Below, piece after piece: positions 3,965-56,771 of a stretch of 64,000 bases of DNA. Source of the stretch: an uncultured bacterium. GTDB lineage: Bacteria; Actinomycetota; Coriobacteriia; Coriobacteriales; Coriobacteriaceae. The notes under the pieces were generated by a model. That model had not been told where the DNA came from, searched no databases, and was given only the letters and a program-made list of their open reading frames with translations. Location of the stretch: the NCBI GenBank assembly GCA_905215525.1, contig CAJMQJ010000002.1, forward strand, positions 85,227 through 149,226, written 5' to 3'. The translations under genes and the position numbers were made by a program. Position 1 is the first letter of the stretch; each line of letters begins with the position of its first letter.

Positions 3965-6613
3965 CTAGCAGACGGCGTAGTCCTGAGGCTCGCGGCCGTA
4001 GTAGGCGTCCAGGTAGAGCTCCTTGATCTCGCTCATGAGCGGGTAGCGCGGGTTTGCGCCGGTGCACTGGTCGTTGAATGCCTGCTCGGTCATCTCGTCG
4101 AGGGTGTCGAGGAAGTACTGCTCGTCAACACCGTAGTCGGCGATGGTCTTCTTGACGCCGATGAAGTCCTTGAGCTCCTCGAGCTTCGTGATGAAGTTCT
4201 CGAAGACCTCCTTGTCGTCCTTGCCCTCGATGCCGCAGTACTTGGCCATCTCGGCGTAGTTGTGCAGCGCGTTGGGGTAAGGATACTGGGAGAAGGTACC
4301 CATCTTGACGGGAGCCTCGGCGGCGTTGTAGCGCATAACGCGGGTCAGGATGACGGCGTTGGCGAGGCCGTGGGGCAGGTGATGGAAGGCGCCGAGCTTG
4401 TGAGCCATGGAGTGGTTGAGGCCCAGGAAGGCGTTGGCGAAGGCCATACCGGCCATGCAAGAGGCGTTGTGCATCTCCTCGCGGGCATGCGGGTCCTTGG
4501 CGCCGTTCGTGAAGCTGGAGGGCAGGTTCTCGAAGACGAGCTTAGCAGCGCGCTCGGAGAGGCCCTTGGTGTAGTCGGAAGCCATGATGGAGACGTAGGA
4601 CTCGATGGCGTGGGTCATGACGTCGATGCCGGAGGCAGCGGTCAGGCCGCGCGGGGCGGTCATGCAGTTGTCGGCGTCGACGATAGCCATGTTGGGGAGC
4701 AGCGCGTAGTCGGCGAGCGGCCACTTGATGCCGGTCTCCTTGTCGGTGATGATGGCGAACGGCGTGCACTCGGAGCCGGTACCCGAAGAGGTCGGGACGG
4801 CGACGAAGTAGGCCTTCTTGCCCATCTCGGGGAAAGTGAAGATACGCTTGCGGATGTCCATGAAGTCCATGGCCATGTCCTCAAACTTGCACTCGGGGTG
4901 CTCGTACATCATCCACATGATCTTGCCGGCGTCCATAGCGGAGCCACCGCCGACGGCGATGATCACGTCAGGCTCAAAGAGAGCCATCTGCTTGGCGCCG
5001 CGACGTGCGCACTGCAGCGACGGATCGGGCTCGACGTCGTAGAAGCAGTCGTGGGCGATGCCCATCTCGTCGAGCTTGGCCTCGATGGCGCGGGTGTTGC
5101 CATTCTTGAAGAGGAACTGGTCGGTGACGATGAAGGCGCGCTTCTTGCCCATGACGGTACCGAGCTCGTCGAGGGCGACGGGCGTGGAACCCTTCTTGAA
5201 GTAGACCTTCTCGGGAGCGCGGAACCACAGCATGTTCTCACGGCGCTCGGCCACAGTCTTAACGTTGATCAAGTGCTTCACCCCAACGTTCTCGGAGACG
5301 GAGTTGCCGCCCCAGGAGCCGCAGCCCAGGGTCAGAGACGGCTTCATGCCAAAGTTGTACAGATCACCGATGCCGCCGTGCGAGGACGGGGTGTTGATGA
5401 CGATACGGCAGGCCTTCATGACGTGCTCGAACAGACTGATCTTCTCGGCCTGGGCGGGGTGCACGTACAGAGAGGCGGTGTGGCCCGGGCCACCGGCGAG
5501 CACCAGGTGCTCGGCCTTGTCGACGGCCTCCTGGAAGTCCTTGGCGTGATACATGGCCAGGACCGGGGAGAGCTTCTCGTGGGAGAACTCTTCCTTGGCG
5601 GGGTCGGTGGAGGTGACCTCGGCGATCAGGATCTTGGTCTTGGCGGGAACCTCGATGCCGGCGAGCTCGGCGATCTTGGCGGCAGCCATGCCGGGAATGC
5701 GGTGATCGAGGGCGCCGTTCTTGAACATGGCGGCACGCAGGGCCTCCATCTCGGCACCCTGCTTGACGAAATAGCAGCCGCGCTTCTGGAACTCGGCCTT
5801 AACCTGGTCATAGATGGTGTCGATGACGGTCACGGACTGCTCGGAAGCGCAGATCATGCCGTTGTCGAAGGTCTTGGAGTGGATGATGGAGTTGACGGCG
5901 AGCAGCACGTCGGCGGTGTCGTCGATGACGACCGGGGTGTTACCGGCGCCAACGCCCAGGGCGGGCTTGCCCGAGGAGTAGGCGGCCTTGACCATGCCCG
6001 GGCCACCGGTGGCGAGGATGATGTCGACGTCGCGCATGACCATGTTGGTCAGCTCGATGGAGGGGACATCGACCCAGCCGATGATACCCTCGGGGGCGCC
6101 GGCCTTGACGGCGGCGTCAAGCACGAGCTTGGCGGCGGCGATGGTGCACTTGGCGGCAGCCGGGTGCGGGGAGATGATGATGGCGTTGCGGGTCTTCAGG
6201 CTGATCAGTGTCTTGAAGATCGCAGTGGAGGTGGGGTTGGTCGTCGGGATGACGGCGCCCACGATACCGATGGGCTCGGCGATCTTGGTGATGCCATAAG
6301 CCTCGTCGCGCTCCAGGACACCACAGGTCTTGGTGTTCTTGTAAGCGTTGTAGATGTACTCTGCGGCGTAGTGGTTCTTGATGACCTTGTCCTCAAGAAC
6401 GCCGCGGCCGGTCTCCTCGATGGCCATCTTCGCCAACGGGATACGAGCCTTGTTGGCGGCCATGGCGGCCTCATAGAAGATCTTGTCGACCTGCTCCTGC
6501 GTGTACGTAGCAAAAAGCGCCTGGGCCTCTCGCATCTGAGCGAGCTTAGCCTCAAGCGCCTCTACGTTGTCCACAATTGCGGGAGTAGTGTTTTCCGGTG
6601 ACTTTTTCACCAT
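3965..6613 (-). CDS. adhE: Bifunctional acetaldehyde-CoA/alcohol dehydrogenase AdhE
   Basis: 882 aa. N-terminal ALDH domain and C-terminal Fe-ADH domain. High-confidence family match by sequence character (e.g. GGGSAMDAGK, HxxxH iron-site motifs). Confidence 0.95.
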   Translation of the reverse strand: MVKKSPENTTPAIVDNVEALEAKLAQMREAQALFATYTQEQVDKIFYEAAMAANKARIPLAKMAIEETGRGVLEDKVIKNHYAAEYIYNAYKNTKTCGVLERDEAYGITKIAEPIGIVGAVIPTTNPTSTAIFKTLISLKTRNAIIISPHPAAAKCTIAAAKLVLDAAVKAGAPEGIIGWVDVPSIELTNMVMRDVDIILATGGPGMVKAAYSSGKPALGVGAGNTPVVIDDTADVLLAVNSIIHSKTFDNGMICASEQSVTVIDTIYDQVKAEFQKRGCYFVKQGAEMEALRAAMFKNGALDHRIPGMAAAKIAELAGIEVPAKTKILIAEVTSTDPAKEEFSHEKLSPVLAMYHAKDFQEAVDKAEHLVLAGGPGHTASLYVHPAQAEKISLFEHVMKACRIVINTPSSHGGIGDLYNFGMKPSLTLGCGSWGGNSVSENVGVKHLINVKTVAERRENMLWFRAPEKVYFKKGSTPVALDELGTVMGKKRAFIVTDQFLFKNGNTRAIEAKLDEMGIAHDCFYDVEPDPSLQCARRGAKQMALFEPDVIIAVGGGSAMDAGKIMWMMYEHPECKFEDMAMDFMDIRKRIFTFPEMGKKAYFVAVPTSSGTGSECTPFAIITDKETGIKWPLADYALLPNMAIVDADNCMTAPRGLTAASGIDVMTHAIESYVSIMASDYTKGLSERAAKLVFENLPSSFTNGAKDPHAREEMHNASCMAGMAFANAFLGLNHSMAHKLGAFHHLPHGLANAVILTRVMRYNAAEAPVKMGTFSQYPYPNALHNYAEMAKYCGIEGKDDKEVFENFITKLEELKDFIGVKKTIADYGVDEQYFLDTLDEMTEQAFNDQCTGANPRYPLMSEIKELYLDAYYGREPQDYAVC

Positions 6614-6705
6614 TTGTGTCTCCTTGCGATCGGAGATTTACCCTACGTCTTGCATGATAGCAAGAAATAATTCGGTAAACGGTAAGATTCCCGTAAAAGG
6701 CATAC

Positions 6706-6737
6706 TAAAACGTTTCAACCAACTGAAACGTTTCAAC
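6706..6737. promoter_or_regulatory. Two tandem palindromic operator-like sites (TAAAACGTTTCAAC and CTGAAACGTTTCAA) in the adhE upstream region
   Basis: The direct repeat AAACGTTTCAAC occurs twice, 18 bp apart, and each copy contains a GAAACGTTTC palindrome with a central CG as in LacI-family operators. Located 95-125 bp upstream of the adhE start. Confidence 0.3.
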
Positions 6738-6767
6738 TATAACTATCTGCCTATTGCATTGCCCCGC

Positions 6768-7805
6768 TCATTGGGGACAGACTTACATGAGTGCTTTCAC
6801 TCATTTGTGACAGACATGGATTTGTCATTTTGCCGTTCTGGGCCTGTTTTTGGCGCAGATTGGATATAAATAGGTCACAGGCTCAGCATTTCGCGTTCCT
6901 TCTCTCCTTTTAGGTGTTGCCTGTACGGCTTTGAAAGGAGAGACCATGCCCCGATGCGCCCGCGAAATATCGCTCACCGGCTATTACCACGTCTTTGACC
7001 GCGGCAACTCCAAACAGATCATTTTTGAAGATGATTCCGACCGCTATCGTTTCTTATCGGACATCTCAGACAGGTTTGCGTGCCATGACGTGGCGGTGTT
7101 GGCCTGGTGCCTTATGGATAATCACTTCCATTTGATGGTTGATGACCCATATGACAACCTTTCAAAGGCAATGCAGTGCGCGCTGACGGCCTATGCCAAG
7201 TATTTCAATGGAAAAACGGGAAGAACGGGTCACCTGTTTGATAATCGCTATTCGCGGATCGCGGTCGAGTCGGACACGCAGGCGGTGCAGTTGCTCGATT
7301 ATATCCATCTCAATCCTGTGAAAGGTGTGCTCGACTCGCTCGATGCCTACCGCTGGTCAAGCTACAAGGCATACCAGCTGGGATACGATCCCTTTGATAT
7401 CTGTGACGCGGCTCCTATGCTCGATATTGTCGGAGGCTCTCGTTGCTATTGCGAGCATCTCGAGGAAGTTGCCGGGCGCATCTGGTCAGTGGAGATTCTT
7501 CCGCGCCGACGGATCCCCGATGAGGACGCCCTTTCCGTTGCGCGCGAAGTTTTGCCGAGCATGGATCCTGCGCTGCTCAAGGCCCTGCCACGCTCCGAAC
7601 GTGATGCCTGTCTGCTGAGGCTCAGGCGGGCACATCTCACGGTCAAGCAAATTGCCCGTATCACCGGTATCGGCGCTACAAGCGTGACCAAGGCCACTGT
7701 AGGCTGGAAGGAGGCAGCGTGAGGTAGGGGCCGAACCGCAGTCGGCATGCATTACGTCTGTCCCCAATGCGTGAAAACACTCATGTAAGTCTGTCCCCAA
7801 TGAGT
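6768..7805 (+). mobile_element. HuH-Y1 transposase gene (RAYT/IS200-like) flanked by inverted REP-like repeats, a 'REPtron'-like unit
   Basis: Left repeat 6768-6815 and right repeat 7756-7805 are reverse complements, with about 27 bp identical and about 88% identity over about 50 bp. Each contains two copies of the GTCTGTCCCCAATG/CATTGGGGACAGAC core. They flank the transposase ORF 6946-7722. Confidence 0.65.
6946..7722 (+). CDS. REP-associated tyrosine transposase / IS200-IS605-family Y1 (HuH) transposase with C-terminal HTH
   Basis: HuH motif DNHFHLMV and catalytic Y motif DYIHLNPVKG. The C-terminal helix-turn-helix LTVKQIARITGIGATSVTKA is longer than in canonical TnpA. The ORF track begins at TTG 6931; the likely ATG is at 6946 after AAAGGAGAG. 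Confidence 0.8.
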   Translation: MPRCAREISLTGYYHVFDRGNSKQIIFEDDSDRYRFLSDISDRFACHDVAVLAWCLMDNHFHLMVDDPYDNLSKAMQCALTAYAKYFNGKTGRTGHLFDNRYSRIAVESDTQAVQLLDYIHLNPVKGVLDSLDAYRWSSYKAYQLGYDPFDICDAAPMLDIVGGSRCYCEHLEEVAGRIWSVEILPRRRIPDEDALSVAREVLPSMDPALLKALPRSERDACLLRLRRAHLTVKQIARITGIGATSVTKATVGWKEAA

Positions 7806-7908
7806 GCAAAAAGGCGCCCTCCGTGGGGGAGGACGCCTTTGGTAAGTTCTATGTGAACGCGAGGTCTTTGACCCGGAGAGTCCGAGGTACTTGTTGGTAA
7901 GACCTTAT

Positions 7909-8097
7909 TTAGGAGCGCGCAACCTTGCCGGACTTGAGGCAGGTGGAGCAAACGTTCATCTTGCGACGGTGACCATCGACGACGACGTAGACACGCTGGA
8001 TGTTGGGGCGGAACTTACGGTTGGTGACGCGGTGAGAGTGGCTGATGGAGCGACCGGCAACGGGGTGCTTACCGCAAACTTCGCAAACTTTGGACAT
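7909..8097 (-). CDS. rpmB: 50S ribosomal protein L28
   Basis: MSKVCEVCGKHPVAGRSISHSHRVTNRKFRPNIQRVYV… (62 aa). The ORF-track start was trimmed to the internal Met, which is preceded by SD AGGAGG. Confidence 0.9.
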   Translation of the reverse strand: MSKVCEVCGKHPVAGRSISHSHRVTNRKFRPNIQRVYVVVDGHRRKMNVCSTCLKSGKVARS

Positions 8098-23102: not shown

Positions 23103-24146
23103 ATGGCTCTTTCCGAATATAGTCTGCGGCTGCTGGGCGCCTATGCCGAGCAGCCGTTCCTTATGGCTCCCATGGCGGGCGTGACCGACCCTGCCTATCG
23201 CATCATGTGTCGCCGCCGCGGTGCCAACCTTGCCTACAGCGAGATGGTGAGCGTGGCAGGCCTTGCCTATGCCAGTAATAAGACGTGGCGCCTGGTGCTA
23301 CCGGCCGACGAGGAGCAGCAGATTTGCGTGCAGCTCTTTGGCTCCAAGCCCGATCAGTTTGCGAGCGCCGTCGCCGCCGTCGAGGAGCGCGTTGGCGATC
23401 GCCTGTCGCTCATCGATATCAATATGGCATGTCCCGCCCGCAAGGTCGTTACCAAGGGCGAGGGCTCGGCGCTCATGCGCACGCCCGACCTGGCCGAGAA
23501 GATCGTCGAGGCCACGGTGGGCGCGGCGCACGTGCCCGTGACCGTCAAGATTCGCAAGGGCTTTTATGCCGAGGACCGCAATGCCGCGACATTTGCCCAG
23601 ATGCTTGAGGGCGCAGGGGCTGCCGCAGTCGCCGTGCATGGTCGTTGCGCCACGCAGCTCTACACGGGCCAGGCCGATTGGTCTGTCGTCGATGAGGTTG
23701 CCGACGCTGTCGAGATTCCCGTGATCGGTTCGGGCGATGTGTTCTCGGCCGAGGACGCTGCCGAGCATCTGCAAGGCTCGGGTGCCAGAGCGGTGTTTAT
23801 CGCGCGCGGCATCTACGGCAATCCGTGGGTGTTCGGCGATGCCCGAGCCCTTGCACTCGATGGCACGCCGGTTCCTTCTCGCTCCTCGGTTGAGCGCCTG
23901 GAGGCTCTGCGTGAGCACCTGACGTTGACGCACGAGCTTCTGCCGCTTATGTCGCGTGCCCGTACGTATGCAAGCTGGTACTTAAAGGGCATGCCCCATG
24001 CCGCCGCCTGGCGCGCTCAGGTGGTGCGCTGCTCCACGTACGAGGAGTTTATGGCGCTGGTCGATGATATCGAGCGCGACGTGGTGCTCTGTGAGGCCGC
24101 GCTTGCCGCTGGTGAGCCGGTGCCCGCTCATCCGCTGGAGGCTTAA
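23103..24146 (+). CDS. dus: tRNA-dihydrouridine synthase
   Basis: MAPMAGVTDPAYR and FMN-binding TIM-barrel motifs. Confidence 0.9.
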   Translation: MALSEYSLRLLGAYAEQPFLMAPMAGVTDPAYRIMCRRRGANLAYSEMVSVAGLAYASNKTWRLVLPADEEQQICVQLFGSKPDQFASAVAAVEERVGDRLSLIDINMACPARKVVTKGEGSALMRTPDLAEKIVEATVGAAHVPVTVKIRKGFYAEDRNAATFAQMLEGAGAAAVAVHGRCATQLYTGQADWSVVDEVADAVEIPVIGSGDVFSAEDAAEHLQGSGARAVFIARGIYGNPWVFGDARALALDGTPVPSRSSVERLEALREHLTLTHELLPLMSRARTYASWYLKGMPHAAAWRAQVVRCSTYEEFMALVDDIERDVVLCEAALAAGEPVPAHPLEA

Positions 24147-24148: not shown

Positions 24149-25381
24149 GTGGCCGTTACCGCGCTGTATGTGCATGTGCCGTTTTGCGCCCAAAAGTGCA
24201 GGTACTGCGACTTTGACTCGCGCAGTTTTCCCCCGTTCGACCTGGGCGCTGCGCTCGATGCCTATTTTGAACAGCTGTATGCACGCCTCGATGCCTATGG
24301 CGACGCCGGGGCGCTTGCACAGATCCGCACCGTCTATGTTGGCGGCGGCACGCCGTCGCTGGCGGGGGAGCGTCTGGTAGAACTCGCCCGGCGTATCTCT
24401 GCGAGGTGTAAGCCCGTTGAGTTTACCTGCGAGGCTAATCCAGAGTCGTTGACTCCACGGCTCGCTGCGGCGCTTGCCAGCGTAGGCGTCACGCGCATTT
24501 CTTTGGGAGTTCAGACCCTCGACAACGCCGAGCTTGCCTCGATCGGCCGTATCCACGATGCGGGTCGCGCCCTTGCGGCCATCGCCACGGTCAAGGATGC
24601 CGGGCTCGATGTGTCGTGCGACCTTATGTGCGGCCTTCCCGGGCAGACCGCTGTAAGCTGGCAGCGTACGCTCGATGGCGTGCTTGCGGCGGCCCCGCAC
24701 CATGTGTCGGTCTATCCGCTCACGCTCGAGGAGGGCACGCCGCTTTACCGCATGGCGTGCCGTGACGAGTCGCTTGAGCCCGATGAGGATTTCCAAGCCG
24801 CATGCATGGACGTTGCGCGCGAGCGGCTGAGTTCGGCAGGCTACCATCCGTATGAGGTGGCAAGCTACGCGCTCGACTGCCATGAGTGTGCTCACAACAT
24901 TGCCTATTGGACCGGACAAGGCTATCTGGGCTTGGGTCGTTCTGCCGCCGGTATGCTCGACGCCGGGGATTTCGATCGCTTGGCCGGGCTGTTTCCCGCC
25001 GTGCCCGCTCGCGGCGATGCGTATCGCGTGCGCTTGGTGCAACGCGACGATGCCGCTACGACGTTTGATGCCGAGTATCTGTCGCAGCGCGAGGCGGCAG
25101 CCGAGGATTTGATGCTTGCCTGCCGCATGACGCGTGGCATTGGGCCCGACTTGTTGGTTCGCTCGGCAAGCGTGATCGCTGCAGATGAGTTGGCGGCGGC
25201 CTGTGACCGTGCACTCGAGTTGGGCCTTGCCGCCTGGGTGCCCGATCATATTGAAGGACATGCGGGACGCGTCACCTCAAAAGACGTTATCGCAGGTCGC
25301 GTCCGTGCTCGTTTAGCGCCCACCCACTTGGGCTGGCTCGATGGAAATGTGCTGTTCGAGCTGTTTTGGGGTCTAGCCTAG
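24149..25381 (+). CDS. hemW: Radical SAM heme chaperone HemW (HemN-like)
   Basis: LYVHVPFCAQKCRYCDF radical-SAM motif. Conserved lepA-hemW neighbourhood. Confidence 0.85.
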   Translation: MAVTALYVHVPFCAQKCRYCDFDSRSFPPFDLGAALDAYFEQLYARLDAYGDAGALAQIRTVYVGGGTPSLAGERLVELARRISARCKPVEFTCEANPESLTPRLAAALASVGVTRISLGVQTLDNAELASIGRIHDAGRALAAIATVKDAGLDVSCDLMCGLPGQTAVSWQRTLDGVLAAAPHHVSVYPLTLEEGTPLYRMACRDESLEPDEDFQAACMDVARERLSSAGYHPYEVASYALDCHECAHNIAYWTGQGYLGLGRSAAGMLDAGDFDRLAGLFPAVPARGDAYRVRLVQRDDAATTFDAEYLSQREAAAEDLMLACRMTRGIGPDLLVRSASVIAADELAAACDRALELGLAAWVPDHIEGHAGRVTSKDVIAGRVRARLAPTHLGWLDGNVLFELFWGLA

Positions 25382-25418
25382 GCCGCTCGGGTAGAATTAC
25401 CGCAATATATACGCTGCT

Positions 25419-26543
25419 GTGAGCAGGAGGTTGCCGCGCATGGCGACGATGAACGAAAAAGATTACTACGAGATTTTGGGTGTCTCTAAGGACGCCACCT
25501 CGCGTGATATACAAAAAGCCTTCCAGCAAAAGGCCCGCAAGCTCCATCCGGACGTCAATAAAGAGCCGGATGCCGAGGAAAAGTTCAAAGAGGTTTCCGA
25601 GGCCTATGCCGTGCTTTCGGACGAGCAGAAGCGTGCGCGCTATGACGCCATGCGCTCGGGCAATCCCTTCGCCGGCGCTCCTGCGGCTTCTCCCTATGGC
25701 GGCGGCTACGCCGGTAGCGCGGGCTATGGCAATCCCTTTGAGGGCGGCTTTCCCTTTGGTGGCGCCTGGGGCCAGCCGCGTCGCGGGCAGGCTGCCTATA
25801 ATCCCGAGAACGGCGCCAACGTGGTCGTCGATATTAAGCTCGACGCCAAGGAAGCCAAGGGTGGTGCCCGCAAGACCGTCCGCTATACGCGCTTCGATAC
25901 CTGTGGTCACTGCGGAGGCTCGGGTTCTGTCTCCTCCGAGCATGCACATACCTGTCCGAGCTGCGGCGGTCGCGGCCACATCGACGTCGACCTGTCCTTC
26001 CTGTTTGGTGCCGGCACGTTTCAGTCGGTCTGCCCCGAGTGCGGCGGTTCCGGTAAGGTCGTCGCCGACCCCTGCCCCGATTGCGGCGGCAGCGGGCGAA
26101 CCCGTGTGACCTCCGAGCAGACGATTGAGTTTCCTGCCGGTACGCACGATGGCGACGAGGTCCGTATTAGCGGTATGGGTCACGCCGGCACCAACGGTGC
26201 CTCGGGTGGCGATTTGGTCGGTCGCGCCCATGTTGAGGCCGAGCGCCTGGAAGGCAAGGCCCGTACCGGTTTTTACCTGATGGGCATCGTGGCGCCGTTT
26301 TTGGTGCTGTCGGCCATCTCGGGCGTGTTCTCGGCCTTTGCCGTGATGTGCTTTATTCCGTTTGCCATGGGCCTGTTCATGGTGCTCTCGGACGGCGTAC
26401 TGCATCGCAGCCTGCTGTGGTGGAAGCGCGGCGCGATGCAGTTTGCCAATGGTTTTGCCAACGGATTTATGTTTGCGCTCGTGTCGGTTTGGTTTGCGAG
26501 CTGCTCGCAGCGTGCCATGCTTTCGCCCTACGCAATGCAATAA
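25419..26543 (+). CDS. Membrane-anchored DnaJ-like protein (J domain plus CR-type zinc finger plus C-terminal 3-4 TM helices)
   Basis: J domain with HPD (KDYYEILGV…KLHPDVN). Four CxxCxGxG repeats. The DnaJ C-terminal domain II is replaced by hydrophobic helices ([40 protein letters not shown]…). Confidence 0.75.
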
Positions 26544-26624
26544 CATCAAACCCTCTGTTTGCGGCCGGCCCAGCTTGGGTATAGGACGCACTGTGACAAT
26601 AATGAAAGTCGGAAGGATTCGGTC

Positions 26625-27773
26625 GTGTCGGAAAATAGGGATTACTACGAGGTACTTGGCGTCGACAAGGATGCCGACGCGCGGACGATTAAACGCGCGT
26701 TTCTAAAGAAGGCCCGTACCGTACACCCGGACGTTTCGGACGACCCCGAGGCTGAGGCCAAGTTCAAGGAGCTCAACGAGGCGTATTCCGTTCTTTCCGA
26801 TGAGCAGAAGCGTGCTAACTACGACCGTTACGGCACTGCCGACGGCCCCGGTGGCTCCGGCTACGTCGATATCAATGATATCTTTGGCGGCATGGGCATG
26901 GACGACCTCTTCTCCTCGTTCTTTGGCGGCGGTGCCAGCGGTGGCGCCCGAAATCGCCGTGAGCGTCGTCGCGGCCGCGATATGGCCATCTCCCTTTCGG
27001 TGACCCTTGAGGAGGCGGCGCTCGGTTGCAAAAAGACGATCAGCTATGACCGCCTTGCCCCCTGCGAGGATTGCAACGGCACCGGCAGGGCCGAGGGTGC
27101 ACAGGAAAAGCAGTGCAGCCGCTGCCGCGGCACGGGCTATGTCACGACGGTCCAGCGTTCGTTCCTGGGCCAGGTTCAGTCCTCTTCGCCTTGCCCCGAC
27201 TGCCACGGCGAGGGCACGGTTATCGACCATCCCTGCGAGACCTGTGACGGTCAGGGCCGCACGCCTTCGCACGAAAAGATCGACATCGATATTCCCGCCG
27301 GTGTTTCGACCGGTCGCCAGCTGCGCGTGAGTGGTTTTGGCGAGGCCGGCCTTCGCGGCGAGCCTTCGGGTGACCTGATTGTCAACGTGCGCGTTGCCGA
27401 CCATGAGCGCTTTAAGCGCAACGGTGACGACCTGTACTTGGTGAGCGATATCTCGATTGCGCAGGCTGCGCTCGGCTGCGAGATCGAGGTCGAGGGCATT
27501 ATGCCCGACGAGGTCGTTAAGGTGACGGTTCCCGCCGGCGCCCAGTACGGCGACACCGTGAGCGTCAATAATTACGGCATGCCGCGCATTGGCGGTGGCG
27601 GTTCGCGTGGCCGCCTGATCGTGCAACTGCGCGTGGTCGTTCCCACCAATCTTTCCAATAAGCAACGCGAGCTGCTCCGTGCTTTTGCCGATGAGATGGG
27701 CGATGACGTCGCTTCCGGTAAGAAGTCGGTGACCGACCGTATCAAGAGTGCCCTCGACGATATCCTCGATTAA
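26625..27773 (+). CDS. dnaJ: Chaperone DnaJ (canonical type I: J, G/F, zinc finger, CTD)
   Basis: VSENRDYYEVLGV…HPD. Four CxxCxGxG repeats and full C-terminal domains. GTG 26625 follows GGAAGGA. Confidence 0.9.
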   Translation: MSENRDYYEVLGVDKDADARTIKRAFLKKARTVHPDVSDDPEAEAKFKELNEAYSVLSDEQKRANYDRYGTADGPGGSGYVDINDIFGGMGMDDLFSSFFGGGASGGARNRRERRRGRDMAISLSVTLEEAALGCKKTISYDRLAPCEDCNGTGRAEGAQEKQCSRCRGTGYVTTVQRSFLGQVQSSSPCPDCHGEGTVIDHPCETCDGQGRTPSHEKIDIDIPAGVSTGRQLRVSGFGEAGLRGEPSGDLIVNVRVADHERFKRNGDDLYLVSDISIAQAALGCEIEVEGIMPDEVVKVTVPAGAQYGDTVSVNNYGMPRIGGGGSRGRLIVQLRVVVPTNLSNKQRELLRAFADEMGDDVASGKKSVTDRIKSALDDILD

Positions 27774-27782: not shown

Positions 27783-29075
27783 GTGCTCGCACCCCATATT
27801 TCCGTCGTCAACCTCGGCTGCCGTGTCAACCGGGTTGAGTCTGACCGTATCACTGCCGATCTTATGCGCCTGGGCTTTGCTATGGTGGAGCCCCAGGATG
27901 CCGATCTGATCGTCATTAACACCTGTGCCGTTACGGGCGAGGCCGAGGCCAAGACACGTAAGGCCGTCCGTCATGCGCTGGCCCATCCAAACGAGCCTTA
28001 TGTGCTCGCGACCGGTTGCGTGGTCAATTTGCATCCCGAGGAGCTGTTGGAGCTTTCGGATCGCGTGATCGCCGAGCCGTCCAAGATCGATGTCGCCGAA
28101 CGTGTCTGCGAGGTGCTGGGCGTTGAGTCCGATAGCGTTCCCGCCTGCAGCGATGGCGAGGTGGTCGATGCGCTCGGTCGCTCTCGCCTGGGCGTGAAGA
28201 TCCAGGACGGCTGCAACCATCGCTGCACCTATTGCATTGTGTGGAAGGCGCGCGGCCCCGAGCGCTCCGTGCCCGTCGAGTCCGTGCTTGAACAAGTTCG
28301 CGAGGCCCAGGAGGCCGGCGTGCCCGAGGTGGTGCTGACCGGTGTGAACCTGGGTGCCTACGATGGCAAGAGCGCGACCGACGAGCATGTCGAAATCGAT
28401 GAGCTGCTCGAGGCCATCATGGAGCGCACGACTATTGCGCATGTGCGCATTTCCTCGGTCGAGCCCATGGATATCTCTGAGCGCCTGCTTAAGGTTATGG
28501 CGCGCTATCCGCAGCGTATCGCCCCGTTTTTGCACCTGCCCGTGCAGTCCGGCTGTACGGCGACCCTGCATCGCATGGGTCGTCCCTATAGTGCGGAGGC
28601 CTTTGAGGACACGGTGCGTATGATTCGCGCCAACTTGCCCCAGGCGTCTCTTTCGTGCGATGTCATCGTCGGTTTTCCTGGTGAGACGGACGAGGAGTTC
28701 GAGGAGTCGCTGGCGCTGTGCCGCCGTGTGGGTTTCTCGCGTATGCACGTGTTCCGCTACAGCAAGCGTCCCGGTACCCTTGCTGCCGACATGCCCGACC
28801 AGGTGCCGCCCGAGGTTATGGCCGAGCGCAGCCGTCGTATGCGAGACACGGCGCAGGAGCTCGCTATTGCCGATGCTCGTCGTCGCGTGGGCACTGTCGA
28901 GCGTGCCGTGCTCGAGTATGGTGACAACCTGACGCTCGGTTCGTTCCATCATGCCCGTCTTGACGATACCTGTGGACTTACAGCCCCGTGCCTGCTCGAT
29001 GTTGCTATCATCGGAGTCGATGATTCCGGCTTGGTCCATGCGCGCAGGGAGGTCCATGGAAGCCTCGAAGATTAG
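27783..29075 (+). CDS. mtaB: MiaB-family radical SAM methylthiotransferase (MtaB-like, tRNA t6A37)
   Basis: UPF0004 N-terminus with conserved Cys. Radical SAM CNHRCTYC. Position immediately downstream of dnaJ, as for yqeV/mtaB. Confidence 0.8.
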   Translation: MLAPHISVVNLGCRVNRVESDRITADLMRLGFAMVEPQDADLIVINTCAVTGEAEAKTRKAVRHALAHPNEPYVLATGCVVNLHPEELLELSDRVIAEPSKIDVAERVCEVLGVESDSVPACSDGEVVDALGRSRLGVKIQDGCNHRCTYCIVWKARGPERSVPVESVLEQVREAQEAGVPEVVLTGVNLGAYDGKSATDEHVEIDELLEAIMERTTIAHVRISSVEPMDISERLLKVMARYPQRIAPFLHLPVQSGCTATLHRMGRPYSAEAFEDTVRMIRANLPQASLSCDVIVGFPGETDEEFEESLALCRRVGFSRMHVFRYSKRPGTLAADMPDQVPPEVMAERSRRMRDTAQELAIADARRRVGTVERAVLEYGDNLTLGSFHHARLDDTCGLTAPCLLDVAIIGVDDSGLVHARREVHGSLED

Positions 29076-30042
29076 ACTTACCGTTCCCGAGGGAGTTGAT
29101 CCCTCGCGCGTTTTGGGCGCCGGCGACGGCGTCCTTCGTGCGCTCGAGAGTTTGGTTCGCGCTCACGTGGTCGCCCGTGGCGATAGCATCGCCGTGAGCG
29201 GTGACCCGGACGAGGTCGAGCTCGTGGCTCGCTTTTTCGAACATGCTTTTCGCGAGGCGGCGGCCGGTCGTACCCTGTCTGCCGACGATGTCTCTCGCTG
29301 CATGGCCGTCTTGCGCGACGGTGAGCACGAGGCTACGTCGCTTCGCGATGACGTGCTGCTTTCGTATCGCGGCCGCGTCATTCGCCCCAAGACGCTCGGG
29401 CAAAAGCGCTATGTGGATGCCATCCGCTCGCATACCATCACGTTTGGCCTGGGTCCAGCCGGTACCGGTAAGACTTATCTGGCCATGGCGCTCGCCGTTG
29501 CCGCGCTCAAGCGCCACGAGGTGGGCCGTTTGATCTTGACGCGTCCGGTTGTCGAAGCAGGGGAGAACCTGGGCTTTTTGCCCGGCACCCTCGAGGAAAA
29601 GATCGATCCGTACATGCGTCCGCTCTACGACGCCCTTTTTGACATGATGGATCGCGAGCGCACCGATGAGCTTATGGAGCGCGGCGTGATCGAGATCGCC
29701 CCGCTTGCCTATATGCGCGGTCGTACGCTGAGCGATGCCTTCGTGGTGCTCGACGAAGCGCAAAATACCACGCCCGAGCAGATGAAGATGTTCCTGACAC
29801 GACTTGGATTCAACTCCAAGTTCGTGATTACCGGCGACCTCAGCCAGCGCGACCTGGTGGGTCGTCGTGGTGGCTTGGCGGATGTCGAGAAGATTTTGGG
29901 CCGTGTCGACGATGTGGCGTTTGCACACCTGGAGCGCGCCGATGTGGTGCGCCATGCCCTGGTGGGTCGTATCGTCGAGGCATACGATGCTTATGATGAC
30001 GTGCGTGAGCAGCGCTTGCGCGACCGAAAGGAGTCCCGTTGA
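29056..30042 (+). CDS. ybeZ: PhoH-like ATPase (YbeZ)
   Basis: Walker A GPAGTGKTYLA and Walker B VVLDEAQN. The ORF-track start at 28951 was trimmed to MEASKIRL, which overlaps the mtaB end. Confidence 0.9.
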   Translation: MEASKIRLTVPEGVDPSRVLGAGDGVLRALESLVRAHVVARGDSIAVSGDPDEVELVARFFEHAFREAAAGRTLSADDVSRCMAVLRDGEHEATSLRDDVLLSYRGRVIRPKTLGQKRYVDAIRSHTITFGLGPAGTGKTYLAMALAVAALKRHEVGRLILTRPVVEAGENLGFLPGTLEEKIDPYMRPLYDALFDMMDRERTDELMERGVIEIAPLAYMRGRTLSDAFVVLDEAQNTTPEQMKMFLTRLGFNSKFVITGDLSQRDLVGRRGGLADVEKILGRVDDVAFAHLERADVVRHALVGRIVEAYDAYDDVREQRLRDRKESR

Positions 30043-37905: not shown

Positions 37906-40683
37906 TTGGCGCGCGGATCTGCACAAAACGCCAAAGGCAATAAAGCCAACAACCAACCGGCATCTGCTAAGGGTGCCGGTTCCCATCTGCGTGCCAATAA
38001 GGGCCATGAGGCAGACTTCGACGATTTTGAGCCCTTGGTCGAGTCTTCGGCCAATCGCGATATCGCCGGAGTGGTCATTGCCGTTTTGGCGATCGCGTCT
38101 TTCATTGCCGTGATCTCTCCGGCAACAGCGCCCGTGACGGCTGCGGTTGCCGGTTTCTACCACCTGGGCTTAGGTCTGGGCGCCTACGTGCTGCCGATCG
38201 TCATCTTGCTGTTTGCCGCCACGCTCTTTTTGGGTGAGGACTCGCCGCTCAACGTGCGCTCTGTTGCGGGCGGCGCCTTGGTCTTTATCGCCGTCGTCTC
38301 CATTCTTTCGCTGATGGTGCCGGGCACGAGCGATTCGTGCGACCTTATGTTTACGCCGCAGAACCTTTCCGTGTCGGGCGGCTACATTGGCGCCTTTATC
38401 GCAAGTGCCTTGCAAAACGCCTTGGGTAAACCTATCGCCATGGTTGTCTTGCTGGGGCTTGTCGTCGTTGGTTTGGTCATTATCGGCTTTTCGGTGGGTG
38501 GCGTTTTGCGCTCCGCACGCGATCGCGCTGCCGATTTTGCCGAGCGTCGACGTGCCGATGTCAATGCGAGCCCGTGGGGCGATGAAGAGGCCCTGTCTGT
38601 TCCCGGCGTCGCTCGTCCGCACCTGAGCATTTTGCGCCAGAAGGGGACTGACGCCGCGGTGACCACGGTCATGGGTGGCGATGTCGACCCGGTTTTGGAT
38701 GACGACGAGGACGATGACCCGTTTGTCGACGTATCCGAGTCGGTTGAAGCCGAGCGGGCCAAGACCACGCTGCTGCCGCGCCGTCATGCCAAGAAGGGCA
38801 AGACGGTTCCCAAGCTCAATACGAGTGAGCCCGACCCGTCTTGGTCCGATAGCGAGATTGAGCTCACCGAGGGCGATGACGAGGACGACGAGGCTCCGAT
38901 TGAGACCGCAAAGACAACTTTGCTGCCGCGTCGCCATGCAAAGCGCGGCCAGGTCACCGGACAGCTTTCGATGGAGGACGATCCGGACAAGGTTGACGAG
39001 TCCGAGCCGCCGTTTTCCGTGAATCCCGTCTCGGCCGCACCTCAGATTCCCGACTTCTTGAAGCATCCCAAGGTTGCAGATACGCCTGCCACGAGTGCTT
39101 TCGAATCGGCTTCGGCTCGTGATGGGGGAGCGGACGCAACTCCTACGGATGCCGAGGATGAAGAAGAGGACGGTCTTAAGCTTCCGCCGCTCGAAATCCT
39201 ACATGCCAACCCGCAGTCGGCTTCTGCCGCGTCTTCGGACAAGGAGCTTGAACAGACTGCCGAGTCGCTGCAGTCCACGTTGCTTGAGTTTGGCCGCAGT
39301 GCCCGCGTGGTCGGCTGGATCGCCGGTCCCACGGTGACGACCTTTAAACTGCAACCTGGCGAGGGCGAGCGCGTGAGCAAGATTTCGAGTCTCGAGGACG
39401 ATATCGCGCTTTCGCTCGCTGCTCAGTCGGTGCGTATCTTTGCCCCGATTCCTGGCACCTCGCTCGTGGGCATCGAGATTCCCAACCGCAAGCGCCAGAA
39501 CGTCAACTTGGGCGACGTGCTGCCCTATGTGAAGGGCGGTCCGCTCGAGCTGGCCATCGGTCGCGATGCCGAGGGCACGCCGGTCGTCGCCGACCTCGCC
39601 AAGATGCCCCACCTGCTGATCGCCGGTACTACGGGTTCCGGTAAGTCGGTCATGATCAACTCCATCATCACGACTCTGCTTATGCGCGCCCTTCCCGAGG
39701 ACGTTCGCTTGATCATGGTCGACCCCAAGCGTGTCGAGCTCGCAGGCTATAACGGCCTTCCGCATCTTTACGTGCCCGTAGTGACCGAGCCCAAGCAGGC
39801 CGCGAGTGCCTTGCAGTGGGCTGTGTCCGAGATGGAGCGCCGCCTGAAGGTCTTCGAGCGCCTTAACGTGCGCAAGATCTCGACCTATAACGAAAAGCAG
39901 GCCGCCGGCGAGTTTGAGCATTACGATAACCCGCCGCAAAAGATGCCCTACCTGGTCATCATCATTGACGAGCTCTCGGACCTGATGATGGTCGCCGGTA
40001 AGGATGTCGAGGCCTCGATCGTGCGTATTGCACAGTTGGGCCGTGCCGCCGGTATTCATCTTATCGTGGCCACGCAGCGCCCCAGCTCCAACGTGGTGAC
40101 GGGCCTCATCAAGGCCAACATCACCAACCGCATCGCCTTTAACGTCGCCACGGGCATCGACTCGCGCGTCATCATCGACCAGATGGGCGCCGAGAAGCTC
40201 ACCGGTTTGGGCGACATGCTGTTCTCCAAGGTCGACTGGGGCAAGCCTCGCCGTATCCAGGGCTGTTTTGTCTCGGACGACGAAATCAACGAGATTGTCG
40301 AGTTCGTTAAGTCGCAGAGCGAGCCCGACTACCACGAGGAGATCCTGTCTGCCGTGGCGCCCGCTTCCATGTCCATGGCGGGTGGCGGCGGCATTGTCCG
40401 CACCGGAGTCGCCGAGCCGCAAGACGATGATCCGCTCATCTGGGAAGCCGCCCATATTGTGGTGGAATCGCAGCTTGGCTCCACATCTGGCCTGCAACGC
40501 CGCCTGAAGGTTGGCTATGCGCGCGCCGGGCGTATTATGGACATGCTGGAAGAAAAGGGTGTCGTCGGCCCGCCCGACGGTTCCAAGCCGCGCGAGGTCC
40601 TGCTGGACGAGGAAGGGCTTGCCGCGCTGGAATCTGTCGACGCCGAGATGGCACGTGAAGATCGTGAGTTTGGAGGATTCTGA
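37906..40683 (+). CDS. ftsK: DNA translocase FtsK
   Basis: N-terminal TM helices, long acidic/low-complexity linker, motor domain (Walker A AGTTGSGKS) and C-terminal gamma (winged-helix) domain. Confidence 0.9.
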   Translation: MARGSAQNAKGNKANNQPASAKGAGSHLRANKGHEADFDDFEPLVESSANRDIAGVVIAVLAIASFIAVISPATAPVTAAVAGFYHLGLGLGAYVLPIVILLFAATLFLGEDSPLNVRSVAGGALVFIAVVSILSLMVPGTSDSCDLMFTPQNLSVSGGYIGAFIASALQNALGKPIAMVVLLGLVVVGLVIIGFSVGGVLRSARDRAADFAERRRADVNASPWGDEEALSVPGVARPHLSILRQKGTDAAVTTVMGGDVDPVLDDDEDDDPFVDVSESVEAERAKTTLLPRRHAKKGKTVPKLNTSEPDPSWSDSEIELTEGDDEDDEAPIETAKTTLLPRRHAKRGQVTGQLSMEDDPDKVDESEPPFSVNPVSAAPQIPDFLKHPKVADTPATSAFESASARDGGADATPTDAEDEEEDGLKLPPLEILHANPQSASAASSDKELEQTAESLQSTLLEFGRSARVVGWIAGPTVTTFKLQPGEGERVSKISSLEDDIALSLAAQSVRIFAPIPGTSLVGIEIPNRKRQNVNLGDVLPYVKGGPLELAIGRDAEGTPVVADLAKMPHLLIAGTTGSGKSVMINSIITTLLMRALPEDVRLIMVDPKRVELAGYNGLPHLYVPVVTEPKQAASALQWAVSEMERRLKVFERLNVRKISTYNEKQAAGEFEHYDNPPQKMPYLVIIIDELSDLMMVAGKDVEASIVRIAQLGRAAGIHLIVATQRPSSNVVTGLIKANITNRIAFNVATGIDSRVIIDQMGAEKLTGLGDMLFSKVDWGKPRRIQGCFVSDDEINEIVEFVKSQSEPDYHEEILSAVAPASMSMAGGGGIVRTGVAEPQDDDPLIWEAAHIVVESQLGSTSGLQRRLKVGYARAGRIMDMLEEKGVVGPPDGSKPREVLLDEEGLAALESVDAEMAREDREFGGF

Positions 40684-42194
40684 TGGCTGCACGCTTTGGT
40701 GACATGCTGCTCGAGCAGCGTCGCCGAATGGGCCTTTCCATTCAGCAGGTCGCCAACACCATCAAAATCAGGCCGCAGATCATCGAGTTTTTCGAGACCG
40801 GTAATTTTGCTTCGATGCCGCCGCGTGGCTATGCGCAGGGCATGATTTCGAGCTATGCTCGCTTTTTGGGCCTCAATCCGCGTGAGGTCGTCAATGCCTA
40901 CTTTGACGACCTGATGGCATACGAACGCGAGACGTCGCAGCAGGGCGGTCGTTTCCAGGACGCTGCCGGCTACGTCAATTCGCGTTCCTCTGTCGATAAC
41001 GGGCGCTTTCTGATGGTTCAGGGCGGTCGTTCGACCCGCTATGGACAGCGTCCTCAGCAGGCCGGTTATATTACCGAGACGGGTTCGGGCGAGGAGATTC
41101 GCTCACAGCGTGACCGGTTCCGCAGTACGCCGATGCCCGAGGACCGTGCACTTCCCGCTGCCCGCGGCGTGGCGCGTGACCCTCGTGCCGGCTACGGCGA
41201 CGGCGGCTATTCCGATCGCGGTCACCGTGGTATCTCCACCGGACGCTCTCGCGGTGGCTATGCGGACGCCGACACCACGCAGGTGACGCCGCGTCTTCGC
41301 TCTCAACCACAGCCGTATGGCCAGCGCCCTTCGGCTCCGCGTGCGGGCCAGCGTGGCTATCAAGGTCGCGGTGAACTTGCGCCCCGCTCGGGTCAGCGCA
41401 GCCTTCAGGGCCAGGGTGGCTATCGCGGCCGTTCCGATAGCAATCGTGGTCGTATGCCTCAGGGAGGCGGCCGCAGCAGTTCCAGTCGTGGACGCGGCGG
41501 TTCCCGTGCTCCTCAAAACAACGGGCTCGATCCGCGTATCGTCTACGCCGGTATCGGTGCCGTGGCGTTGCTGCTGATCGTGCTCATCGTGGTACTTCTG
41601 CGCGGCTGCGCATCTTCGACGCCCGAGACCACGCCCGAGACGCCCACTGCTACCAAGACGACGACCAAGAAGTCTTCTAAGAAGACCGAAACGGTCGACG
41701 AGGACGAAGACGCCGATGAGGCGACGGATGAGTCGACCGATTCGGATGCCACCAAGACGACGGCTAAAAAGGAAGAGAACGAGGTAACGAAGGTCAAGGT
41801 CTCCGTTGCCAAGGGAAAGACCGCCTGGATTGAGGTCAAGGTCGACGGTAAGTCGGTCTATGGCGCCCAGGCGACTGGCCCCTTTGAGCAGGAGTACACG
41901 CCCGAGTCCTCGATCGAGATCACCACGTCCAAGCCTTCCGATGTCACCGTTACCAAGAACGGCGAAAAGGTCCGTTACGATACCAAGACCTCGGGCGTGG
42001 CGCGCGTGACGATCACCGTTCCCAAGAAGGAGACGACTGATTCCGAGAATGGTGAAAGTTCTGATGGTACCGACACCACCGATGGTACCGATACCACCGA
42101 CGGTACCGATGCCCAGTCCACGGATGGCGCCGATACCGCAACTGACGGCCAGACGCCCACCGATTCTACCGACTATTCGTACGATAGCTACTAA
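40683..42194 (+). CDS. RodZ-like cytoskeletal protein (N-terminal XRE-type HTH, RG-rich linker, one TM helix, Thr/Asp-rich spacer, C-terminal DUF4115-like domain)
   Basis: N-terminus LEQRRRMGLSIQQVANTIKIRPQIIEFFETGNF…GYAQGMISSYARFLGL matches the RodZ/YmfM pattern. Position upstream of pgsA-cinA-recA, as for B. subtilis ymfM. Confidence 0.65.
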   Translation: MAARFGDMLLEQRRRMGLSIQQVANTIKIRPQIIEFFETGNFASMPPRGYAQGMISSYARFLGLNPREVVNAYFDDLMAYERETSQQGGRFQDAAGYVNSRSSVDNGRFLMVQGGRSTRYGQRPQQAGYITETGSGEEIRSQRDRFRSTPMPEDRALPAARGVARDPRAGYGDGGYSDRGHRGISTGRSRGGYADADTTQVTPRLRSQPQPYGQRPSAPRAGQRGYQGRGELAPRSGQRSLQGQGGYRGRSDSNRGRMPQGGGRSSSSRGRGGSRAPQNNGLDPRIVYAGIGAVALLLIVLIVVLLRGCASSTPETTPETPTATKTTTKKSSKKTETVDEDEDADEATDESTDSDATKTTAKKEENEVTKVKVSVAKGKTAWIEVKVDGKSVYGAQATGPFEQEYTPESSIEITTSKPSDVTVTKNGEKVRYDTKTSGVARVTITVPKKETTDSENGESSDGTDTTDGTDTTDGTDAQSTDGADTATDGQTPTDSTDYSYDSY

Positions 42195-42745: not shown

Positions 42746-44095
42746 ATGGATACACCGTTGGGCTCCGTGCTCTACATCACCCTCGGGTGCGCTAAGAACG
42801 AGGTTGACACCGACCGCATGCGTTCTCTTTTGACCGCCGCGGGCTACGAGGAGGCATTCGACCCACAGGATGCCGATATCGCCATCGTCAATACATGCTC
42901 GTTCCTCGCCTCCGCAACGTCCGAGAGCATCGAGACCACGCTCGAGCTCGCTAACGAGGTTCAGGACGGCGTTCGTTCTTGTCCCATCGTCATGTGCGGC
43001 TGTGTGCCGTCGCGCTATGGCGACGACCTGCCCGATGAACTGCCCGAGGTCTCTGCCTTTGTGAAGGCCGACGAGGAGGACGGCATCGTGGCGGTCATCG
43101 ATGGCGTGCTGGGTGTCGAGCGTGTGATCGCTGCCTATATTCCGCAAGTCAAGCGCACTGTCGAGGGCGCCGTTGCTTACGTCAAGATTTCCGATGGCTG
43201 CAACCGCTTCTGCAGCTTCTGCATGATCCCCTATATTCGCGGTCGCTATCATTCGCGCAATGCCGAGAGCATTATCTCCGAGGTGCGCGACCTGGTTGCC
43301 GGCGGTGTGCGCGAGATCGTGCTGATCGGCCAGGACACGGGTATTTGGGGCACCGACTTTGCCGACGAAGACGTCACCGATGGCTCGCCGCGCAATCTGG
43401 CGCAGCTGCTGCGCGCCGTCGCCGAGGCCGTGCGTCCGCAGAACGTCTGGGTCCGTGTGCTCTACCTGCAGCCCGAGGGCATGACTGACGAGCTCATTGA
43501 GACCATTCGTGATACGCCCGAGGTGCTGCCCTATATCGATATCCCCGTGCAGCACTGCGACGCGCGCATCCTCAAGGCTATGCGCCGTTCTGGTTCGCGC
43601 CAGGAGCTCGAGGACCTGTTCCGCGATCTGCGTGAGCGCATCCCCGGCATCGTGATTCGTTCCACGGCCATGGTCGGCTTCCCGACCGAGACCGACGACG
43701 AGTTCCGCGACCTTATCGACTTTATGGACACCGTCGGCTTCGACTACACGAGCGTCTTTGCCTACTCGCAGGAGGAGGGCAGCCTGGCCGCCAAGATGGA
43801 GGGCCAGGTCGATGAAGAGGTCAAGCTCGAGCGCGCCCAAGAGGCCATGGACCTGGCCGAGTCGCTCGGTTTTGCTGCAACTGCCGCACATGTGGGCGAG
43901 CGCGCCCAGGTGATTGTCGACGGTATCGAAGAGACCGAGGACGGCGCCGAGCTGATCGGACATGCCTGGTTCCAGGCGCCTGATTCCGATGGCGCGGTGC
44001 ATCTGGATGCCAGCGAGGCATCTGTGGGCGATATTCTGACGGTCGAGTTTACCGATAGCTTCTGCTATGAGCTTATCGGCCATGTTGTGGAGTAG
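42746..44095 (+). CDS. rimO: Ribosomal protein S12 methylthiotransferase RimO (MiaB family with TRAM domain)
   Basis: UPF0004 domain with conserved Cys. Radical SAM CNRFCSFC. C-terminal TRAM-like domain. Confidence 0.8.
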   Translation: MDTPLGSVLYITLGCAKNEVDTDRMRSLLTAAGYEEAFDPQDADIAIVNTCSFLASATSESIETTLELANEVQDGVRSCPIVMCGCVPSRYGDDLPDELPEVSAFVKADEEDGIVAVIDGVLGVERVIAAYIPQVKRTVEGAVAYVKISDGCNRFCSFCMIPYIRGRYHSRNAESIISEVRDLVAGGVREIVLIGQDTGIWGTDFADEDVTDGSPRNLAQLLRAVAEAVRPQNVWVRVLYLQPEGMTDELIETIRDTPEVLPYIDIPVQHCDARILKAMRRSGSRQELEDLFRDLRERIPGIVIRSTAMVGFPTETDDEFRDLIDFMDTVGFDYTSVFAYSQEEGSLAAKMEGQVDEEVKLERAQEAMDLAESLGFAATAAHVGERAQVIVDGIEETEDGAELIGHAWFQAPDSDGAVHLDASEASVGDILTVEFTDSFCYELIGHVVE

Positions 44096-56767: not shown

Positions 56768-56771
56768 TTCC

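Follow-up and report, generated by a model that had tools for sequence, protein, structure and literature searches.

The region examined lies within a 64,000-nucleotide stretch of contig CAJMQJ010000002.1 (assembly GCA_905215525.1), referred to as the window, and belongs to a Collinsella gut bacterium. Genes of the window follow the order comEC, holA, rpsT, lepA, dus, hemW, J-TM, dnaJ, mtaB, phoH, ybeY, dgkA, era, recO, in which the J-TM gene, the subject of this study, is a second dnaJ-like gene placed between hemW and a canonical class A dnaJ. Its product carries a J domain with the HPD motif, a Gly/Phe-rich (G/F) linker, four CxxCxGxG zinc-finger repeats and a complete first C-terminal domain (CTD-I), followed by three hydrophobic helices predicted to be transmembrane (TM). 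An earlier interpretation of the window from its letters alone (the sequence-only reading) had described two dnaJ paralogues in tandem, and the downstream copy indeed scored above the cut-off of TIGR02349, the NCBIfam model for the bacterial DnaJ equivalog (Table 1). Residue numbers refer to the 374-aa open reading frame (ORF) that begins at GTG 25419 or to the 367-aa protein that begins at ATG 25440.

Profile searches recovered the complete J domain and the four-repeat zinc centre of the J-TM protein (Table 1), both of which had been recognized beforehand. The HPD triplet occupies residues 43-45 of the 374-aa ORF (25545-25553) and is invariant across the family of homologues described below. 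The four CxxCxGxG repeats are exact, one of them reading CPDCGGSG, and the zinc-finger cysteines are likewise invariant (8/8). The linker (residues 77-134) is rich in G, F, P and A. The protein therefore has the N-terminal J domain with HPD, the G/F linker and the zinc finger inserted in CTD-I that are features of class A J proteins.

The extent of the C-terminal domains was defined by three alignments. Pfam DnaJ_C aligned with residues 136-273 at profile positions 2-73 of 152 only, which correspond to CTD-I, and TIGR02349 was matched from position 1 to 260 of 354 with 245.9 bits, below its cut-off of 377.2. In BLASTP the J-TM protein and the neighbouring DnaJ shared 36% identity over 285 residues; the alignment reached residue 292 of the former and 277 of the latter and ran through GDLIVNVRVADHERFKRNGDDLYL of the neighbouring DnaJ, the end of CTD-I. 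Because the BLASTP alignment reaches the end of CTD-I and TIGR02349 is matched over positions 1-260, CTD-I is complete, and the proposal that the protein turns hydrophobic after the first β segment of this domain had to be abandoned. CTD-II was absent from the J-TM protein as judged with the Pfam and TIGR02349 profiles and from all three frames of 26150-26640, and three hydrophobic helices were found in place of the C-terminal dimerisation domain of class A proteins. It is thus firmly established that CTD-II and the dimerisation domain have been replaced by three predicted helices.

Structure prediction, which had been suggested as a check on the similarity to DnaJ, supported this assignment. 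The AlphaFold2 model of the 367-aa protein, built with a 48-sequence family alignment and having a mean predicted local distance difference test score (pLDDT) of 81, contained a DnaJ-like J domain, zinc finger and CTD-I and a disordered G/F linker (residues 78-120). Foldseek matched the soluble part to Streptococcus pneumoniae DnaJ (6jzb), DNAJA2 (7zhs) and Ydj1 (1nlt), and the J domain matched other J domains at 45-61% identity.

Residues from about 285 to 362 of the 374-aa ORF are strongly hydrophobic, with 19-residue Kyte-Doolittle means of up to 2.35. The sequence-only reading had placed 3-4 hydrophobic helices here; the hydrophobic C-terminus stood, and the number was settled at three by AlphaFold2, which modelled helices at residues 273-294, 299-317 and 325-365 (367-aa numbering) with pLDDT 86-97. 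These helices, some 75 residues in all, are nearly free of charge, with 0.02-0.23 K+R and 0.03-0.11 D+E per helix. Across 232 homologues the mean number of K+R was 3.2 ahead of TM1 and 0.07 in the uncharged TM1-TM2 turn of 4 residues; it rose to 3.5 in the loop between TM2 and TM3 and was 1.3 in the C-tail. As read from the sequence, these charges fit the positive-inside rule for a protein with a cytoplasmic N-terminal part, a TM1-TM2 hairpin, a cytoplasmic loop with the Trp pair (WW) and an outward TM3.

Specific positions of the tail were conserved in the 232-member alignment. In TM1, G277, F278, G282, P286 and F287 were conserved at 85-99%; G311 of TM2 was conserved at 96%, and the loop tryptophans W327 and W328 at 100% and 90%, respectively. 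TM3 retained G338 (97%), G342 (75%), A346 (85%), S354 (80%) and C355 (88%), of which G338, G342 and A346 form a GxxxGxxxA helix-packing motif. In the same alignment the J domain was the most conserved region, with a mean pairwise identity of 0.83 (83%), followed by the zinc finger (0.64), the G/F linker (0.62), CTD-I (0.46-0.61), TM1 (0.44), the loop (0.39), TM3 (0.35) and TM2 (0.27).

The tail had no Pfam match at E up to 10, no NCBIfam match and no relative in the PDB by sequence profile search. PF27659, which is listed for homologues, was considered as a family for the tail and rejected, the match being a faint one of CHP02642 zinc-finger type that lies outside it. In one member of the representative library (P0121, 325 aa) the TM1-TM2 segment ending in LVMGLV occurs twice in tandem, which is probably an assembly artefact of a metagenome contig rather than a real variant.

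The phylogenetic spread of this architecture, which the sequence-only reading had marked for checking, was followed through protein and contig collections. Among 5.8 billion proteins searched, more than 100 clusters matched the J-TM protein with 58-99% identity and 95-98% coverage, under names such as ‘DnaJ domain-containing protein [Collinsella ihumii]’, Collinsella sp., Coriobacterium glomerans PW2 and Coriobacteriaceae. A second search, with nine divergent members as queries, yielded 120 proteins of 358-401 aa, some of them named, for example as Atopobiaceae bacterium, Paratractidigestivibacter and Coriobacteriales bacterium. The 112 that were new (112/112) had HPD and hydrophobic segments past about residue 270, and 110 of the 112 had four exact CxxCxGxG repeats. 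In total, more than 230 full-length homologues from Coriobacteriaceae and Atopobiaceae were 37-99% identical to the J-TM protein over 97-99% of its length and kept the tail. The layout common to the family and to the window protein is that of a J domain, G/F linker, four CxxCxGxG repeats, CTD-I and a tail with GFxxxGxxxPF, WW and GxxxGxxxA-SC, in about 360-400 aa.

Searches with the tail itself gave a consistent result. A tail-only profile of 111 positions had 47 matches among 1.84 billion representative proteins, all of them fragments or proteins of 359-395 aa with the same layout; among these 47 matches the tail was never fused to any other domain. A scan of genome contigs with an 8-sequence tail alignment as the query kept 80 loci of 98-100% identity, nearly all labelled Collinsella or C. 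aerofaciens and a few with another or no genus label; these loci place the window in the C. aerofaciens group but do not show the wider distribution. The J-TM proteins are a conserved, lineage-restricted family of the order Coriobacteriales.

In a high-GC genome, a domain that breaks off and gives way to hydrophobic sequence is suspect a priori, and the sequence-only reading had allowed that the hydrophobic end might be the product of a frameshift within a normal dnaJ. Read in this way, with a sequencing error or a decaying pseudogene as variants, the TIGR02349 score under the cut-off would also be explained. The two other frames of 26150-26640, however, hold stops and nothing resembling CTD-II, and a tail of equal length with conserved motifs is kept in more than 230 homologues down to 37% identity. 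In 80 independent Collinsella assemblies the tail is 98-100% identical. Synteny is kept in complete genomes, e.g., C. glomerans PW2, and the homologues come from separate sources, among them NCBI, ENA, JGI and Logan, not from one misassembly. The frameshift reading was rejected on the three-frame translation and the conservation of the tail across two families, and the chance that the tail is an artefact of any of these kinds is considered negligible.

The ORF on the plus strand, 25419-26543, opens with a GTG that lies 7 codons 5′ of ATG 25440. The true start is most likely ATG 25440, as judged from the sequence, giving a protein of 367 aa, because all homologues begin there and a Shine-Dalgarno-like GCAGGAGG is found 9 nt ahead of it; the GTG start given previously was revised. 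A hairpin, CTGCT-GTG-AGCAG (25414-25430), overlaps the 5′ portion of GCAGGAGG and could be a weak, thermometer-like structure that occludes the ribosome binding site or could be due to chance. The upstream region is nearly identical across the 80 Collinsella loci and is hence uninformative for the hairpin. A -10-like hexamer, TAGAAT, is present 5′ of the gene at 25391-25396. Scans of the J-TM locus for σ70 promoters, terminators, Rfam families and tRNAs gave nothing convincing.

Table 1. Positions in the window of the J-TM gene, its predicted parts and the genes on either side.
Feature	Position	Strand	Evidence or remark
hemW (radical-SAM haem chaperone)	24149-25381	+	TIGR00539 hemN_rel E 4e-59; Radical_SAM; conserved left neighbour
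Shine-Dalgarno-like GCAGGAGG	25423-25430	+	9 nt 5′ of ATG 25440; read straight from the sequence
J-TM gene (J-ZnF-CTD-I-3TM)	25440-26543	+	367 aa plus stop; start point of homologues; within ORF 25419-26543
J domain	25461-25646	+	Residues 15-76 of 374-aa ORF; PF00226 E 1e-25
Gly/Phe-rich linker, predicted disordered	25647-25820	+	pLDDT <50 at residues 78-120 of 367-aa model
CTD-I, first part (strands ahead of zinc finger)	25821-25901	+	PF01556 from residue 136; model strands 128-154
Zinc-finger-like region, four CxxCxGxG repeats	25902-26096	+	PF00684 E 2e-13, residues 162-226
CTD-I, second part	26097-26237	+	PF01556 to residue 273; TIGR02349 to profile position 260/354; BLASTP vs neighbouring DnaJ
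Predicted TM helix 1, GFxxxGxxxPF at cytoplasmic start	26271-26321	+	Hydropathy; AlphaFold2 helix 273-294
Predicted TM helix 2, tight hairpin with TM1	26334-26387	+	AlphaFold2 helix 299-317
Basic loop, HRSxLWWKRG motif, predicted cytoplasmic	26388-26438	+	Conserved Trp pair; mean 3.5 K+R
Predicted TM helix 3, GxxxGxxxA and terminal S-C	26439-26504	+	AlphaFold2 helix 325-365
Canonical class A dnaJ (DnaJ2-position orthologue)	26625-27773	+	TIGR02349 393.5 bits > 377.2; DnaJ_C profile 3-152/152

The locus was compared with those of C. glomerans PW2, an Atopobiaceae genome and a lower-GC relative. The core order lepA-dus-hemW-J-TM-dnaJ-mtaB-ybeY-dgkA-era-recO was kept in 4/4 genomes, the window included, and the J-TM gene stood between hemW and canonical dnaJ in each; phoH was found between mtaB and ybeY in the window and the Atopobiaceae genome only. 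Gaps of 58 nt from hemW to the J-TM gene and of 81 nt from the J-TM gene to dnaJ would allow co-transcription of the three genes. Over the region from the J domain to CTD-I, the TM copies of the four genomes were 47-73% identical to one another and the canonical copies 55-76%, whereas identity between the two kinds of copy was 37-46%. Since identity within each copy exceeds that between copies, the duplication is older than the divergence of these lineages, which have kept both copies ever since.

Earlier it had been proposed that hrcA and the CIRCE operator are missing from this locus, and this held for the window and its relatives. Immediately 5′ of dnaJ there is no room for hrcA, because hemW and the J-TM gene fill that space. 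No HrcA, DnaK, GrpE or HspR domain was detected in 41 ORFs of the window, comprising the genes of the locus and 33 of the ORFs of at least 220 aa outside it, chosen by codon-position GC. CIRCE was absent from the 64-kb window at up to 5 mismatches and from four related loci, including those of C. glomerans PW2, the Atopobiaceae genome and the lower-GC relative, at up to 4 mismatches; HAIR had no match above chance in the window or in the four related loci. In Bacillus the corresponding block is lepA-hemN-hrcA-grpE-dnaK-dnaJ. In mycobacteria, dnaJ2 lies directly downstream of hrcA (PMC13435591). The flanks lepA and hemW, then dnaJ, mtaB, phoH, ybeY, dgkA, era and recO, are the ancestral Gram-positive ones shared with the Bacillus block and the actinobacterial hrcA-dnaJ2 arrangement; the difference is that here a J-TM paralogue takes the hrcA slot ahead of dnaJ, without a CIRCE operator.

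Several further features of the window were recorded. A gene for a tRNA-dihydrouridine synthase (Dus; E 5e-75) at 23103-24146 lies between lepA and hemW and is kept in 4/4 Coriobacteriales loci; the Bacillus and mycobacterial versions of the lepA-hemW block are not known to contain dus. The longest ORF of phoH (28951-30042) shares 125 nt with the end of the mtaB-like gene ahead of it, and the true start is probably further downstream, because PhoH has 325 aa in the Atopobiaceae relative and 363 aa here. Three paralogues with UPF0004 and radical-SAM domains, methylthiotransferases of the MiaB/RimO/MtaB family, occur within 25 kb (27783-29075, 42746-44095 and 50696-52099). Among them a TRAM domain is detectable in 42746-44095 only, and 50696-52099 is directly followed by miaA (IPPT, 52099-53037). 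Directly after ftsK, positions 40683-42194 encode a protein of 503 aa, unusually long for a RodZ-like protein, with an N-terminal HTH_25 and a weak RodZ C-terminal domain. A 263-aa ORF at 6931-7722 has a weak match to an IS200-like Y1 transposase (E 1e-6) and lies beside a large adhE on the minus strand (3965-6613); the GC content of region 6000-8000 is 0.55, the lowest in the first half of the window. Over the final 12 kb (52000-62000) the GC content falls from about 0.61 to 0.52-0.56 and gene orientation is mixed, with genes for an MGDG-synthase-like glycosyltransferase, a thioredoxin-reductase-like oxidoreductase, DegV and NlpC/P60.

With a probability of roughly 0.6, the J-TM protein is a membrane-integrated, class-A-derived J-domain co-chaperone that arose from an old dnaJ duplication and targets DnaK to the membrane. 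The model extends to membrane insertion, topology, DnaK partnership, client class and oligomeric state, which we infer from the architecture described above. In an ancestor of the Coriobacteriales, dnaJ would have been duplicated in tandem, and one copy would have become the J-TM gene, with CTD-II and the dimerisation helix replaced by the TM1-TM2 hairpin, the basic Trp-Trp loop and the third helix. The tail would hold the protein in the cytoplasmic membrane, its chaperone part turned to the inside. There the J domain would trigger the DnaK ATPase through HPD, the G/F linker would provide flexibility, and CTD-I and the zinc finger would act as a single client-binding module. If the three-helix tail anchors the J domain and the client-binding parts at the inner face in this manner, it would follow that DnaK is loaded at the membrane onto surface clients such as nascent, misassembled or damaged membrane proteins and secretory precursors; the cytosol would be left to the soluble DnaJ of the adjacent gene. 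The strong conservation of the J domain and its HPD suggests that the partnership with DnaK has been maintained.

The loss of CTD-II and the dimerisation domain implies either that the TM helices replace dimerisation or that the protein is specialized for one partner or a narrow set of clients. In the preferred model GxxxGxxxA of TM3 may stand in for the lost domain by packing helices or dimerising the protein. Recruitment of DnaK to the membrane for quality control, also raised by the sequence-only reading, is plausible by domain logic and by analogy with DjlA and DjlB/DjlC. Indeed, localization of Hsp70 activity by membrane-bound J proteins is an established principle, exemplified by DjlA and by DjlB/DjlC with HscC (PMC8215388). 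An unlikely extension of the model is that this polytopic class A DnaJ derivative, dimerising via its TM GxxxGxxxA, forms a dedicated DnaK-dependent station for membrane-protein biogenesis and quality control and, having taken over the slot of hrcA in the genome, might also link the heat-shock response to stress of the membrane or envelope through titration of DnaK.

Several points weigh against a co-chaperone of this kind. Helix II of the J domain reads QQKARK where E. coli DnaJ has KR, a point tempered by the similar KKAR of the neighbouring canonical DnaJ. Class A and B J proteins bind clients via several weak sites in a dimer (PMC8215388); one CTD without a known dimerisation domain could have too low an affinity for clients to support general holdase work, which would point to a specific partner. 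The topology was derived from hydropathy, AlphaFold2 and charge counts. The first two TM helices are short, at about 17-18 residues each, and about 1.3 K+R remain in the C-tail, which leaves the orientation of TM3 uncertain. The short helices and the fact that GxxxGxxxA is also a packing motif of soluble helices would favour a hydrophobic oligomerisation bundle, soluble or peripheral rather than transmembrane, that replaces the dimerisation domain. This is very improbable, given about 75 residues almost without charged side chains, hydropathy means of up to 2.35 and flanks that follow the positive-inside pattern. The eight invariant zinc-finger cysteines and two further conserved cysteines in the tail (C304, 43%; C355, 88%) could instead belong to a DnaK-independent, membrane-tethered zinc-finger holdase or thiol-disulfide oxidoreductase in which the J domain is a relic. 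The J domain is, however, the most conserved region (83%) and its HPD is invariant, which indicates strong selection, and such an origin of the cysteine conservation likewise has little chance of being correct.

The main rival reading makes the protein a dedicated adaptor or regulator and not a chaperone for membrane quality control in general, a possibility that is doubtful but is to be taken seriously. In one variant the tail and WW loop would dock a single membrane partner, e.g., a translocon, insertase, protease or cell-envelope machine; in another, the protein would act in heat-shock control in the usual place of hrcA, keeping DnaK or a regulator at the membrane until membrane or envelope stress sets it free. 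Conservation of the tail is sequence-specific beyond hydrophobicity (GFxxxGxxxPF, WW, GxxxGxxxA and SC), and the single CTD without a dimerisation domain argues for weak generic client binding (PMC8215388). The regulatory variant would suit a locus that lacks hrcA and CIRCE at the point where hrcA-dnaJ2 is found in Actinobacteria such as mycobacteria (PMC13435591). No partner gene is linked to the locus, however, the neighbours being housekeeping genes in ancestral order, and the intact zinc finger and CTD-I are generic client-binding parts. Moreover, no regulatory motif was found upstream, and a regulatory role is pure inference.

The sites and substrates of Hsp70/DnaK action are set by J-domain proteins. 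Those known to be membrane-bound in bacteria, DjlA and DjlB/C, belong to class C and have a bare J domain, whereas the J-TM family retains a genuine client-binding module, the zinc finger with CTD-I, in a protein predicted to be integrated into the membrane. If the co-chaperone model is correct, the family would be a natural experiment on how much of the class A architecture client delivery needs, having a single CTD and no canonical dimer, and also on the use of DnaK in membrane-protein quality control of Gram-positive anaerobes. It occurs throughout Collinsella and Atopobiaceae, which are abundant in the human gut and oral microbiota and associated with disease. Because the J-TM gene is labelled only ‘DnaJ’ or ‘DnaJ domain-containing protein’, automated annotation hides two functionally different dnaJ genes.

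Whether the family was already known and characterised had been left as a possible objection. Annotation of the homologues is generic (‘DnaJ’, ‘DnaJ domain-containing protein’ or ‘DnaJ-class molecular chaperone’), and neither a family model nor a paper was found. No description of a J-ZnF-CTD-I-TM protein was encountered in the literature covered, which took in a survey of some 280,000 J-domain proteins and a review on the Hsp70 systems of bacteria; the catalogue of Barriot et al. 2020 (J Mol Biol), the principal one for J-protein architectures in bacteria, fell outside this coverage and may list the architecture. As far as could be found, a polytopic, membrane-integrated class A DnaJ derivative is undescribed in bacteria.

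Compared with class A DnaJ/Hsp40 proteins (E. coli DnaJ, Ydj1, DNAJA2 and the adjacent dnaJ product), the J-TM protein has the same N-terminal J domain with HPD, G/F linker and CTD-I with inserted zinc finger, but lacks CTD-II and the dimerisation domain and has three hydrophobic helices instead. By strict class A criteria and the TIGR02349 cut-off, both applied to the sequence, it is not a DnaJ equivalog. Ydj1 and DNAJA1 also reach membranes, via a C-terminal farnesyl group and not via TM helices.

DjlA of Proteobacteria is a J protein with a membrane anchor and cooperates with DnaK at the inner membrane (PMC8215388), as is proposed for the J-TM protein. Its layout, however, is reversed, with an N-terminal TM segment, a central domain and a C-terminal J domain and without zinc finger or CTD, and the two are homologous in the J domain only. 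The DjlA model NF006948 did not match the J-TM protein at E up to 0.01, and the statement that DjlA-like proteins lack the present architecture was upheld. An N-terminal J domain with a C-terminal anchor is likewise present in the tail-anchored J proteins Hlj1 of yeast and DNAJB12/14 of human. The tail-anchored DjlB and DjlC of E. coli, whose partner is HscC, share the N-terminal cytoplasmic J domain and C-terminal anchor and have been proposed as chaperones of membrane proteins (PMC8215388). Tail-anchored J proteins differ in having a single anchor helix and no zinc finger or CTD-I, in contrast to the three helices, zinc finger and CTD-I of the J-TM protein. DjlB/C, moreover, pair with HscC and not DnaK. 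The likeness of the tail-anchored proteins to the J-TM protein is a functional analogy only.

The plant proteins ORANGE and DnaJE1 are plastid proteins of unrelated origin, without a J domain and with another domain order. They resemble the J-TM protein in combining a DnaJ-type cysteine-rich zinc finger with transmembrane helices (PMC12063368). Set beside these systems, the J-TM proteins are a real, conserved and uncharacterised family in which known modules have been recombined, in an understandable way, within a single order of bacteria.

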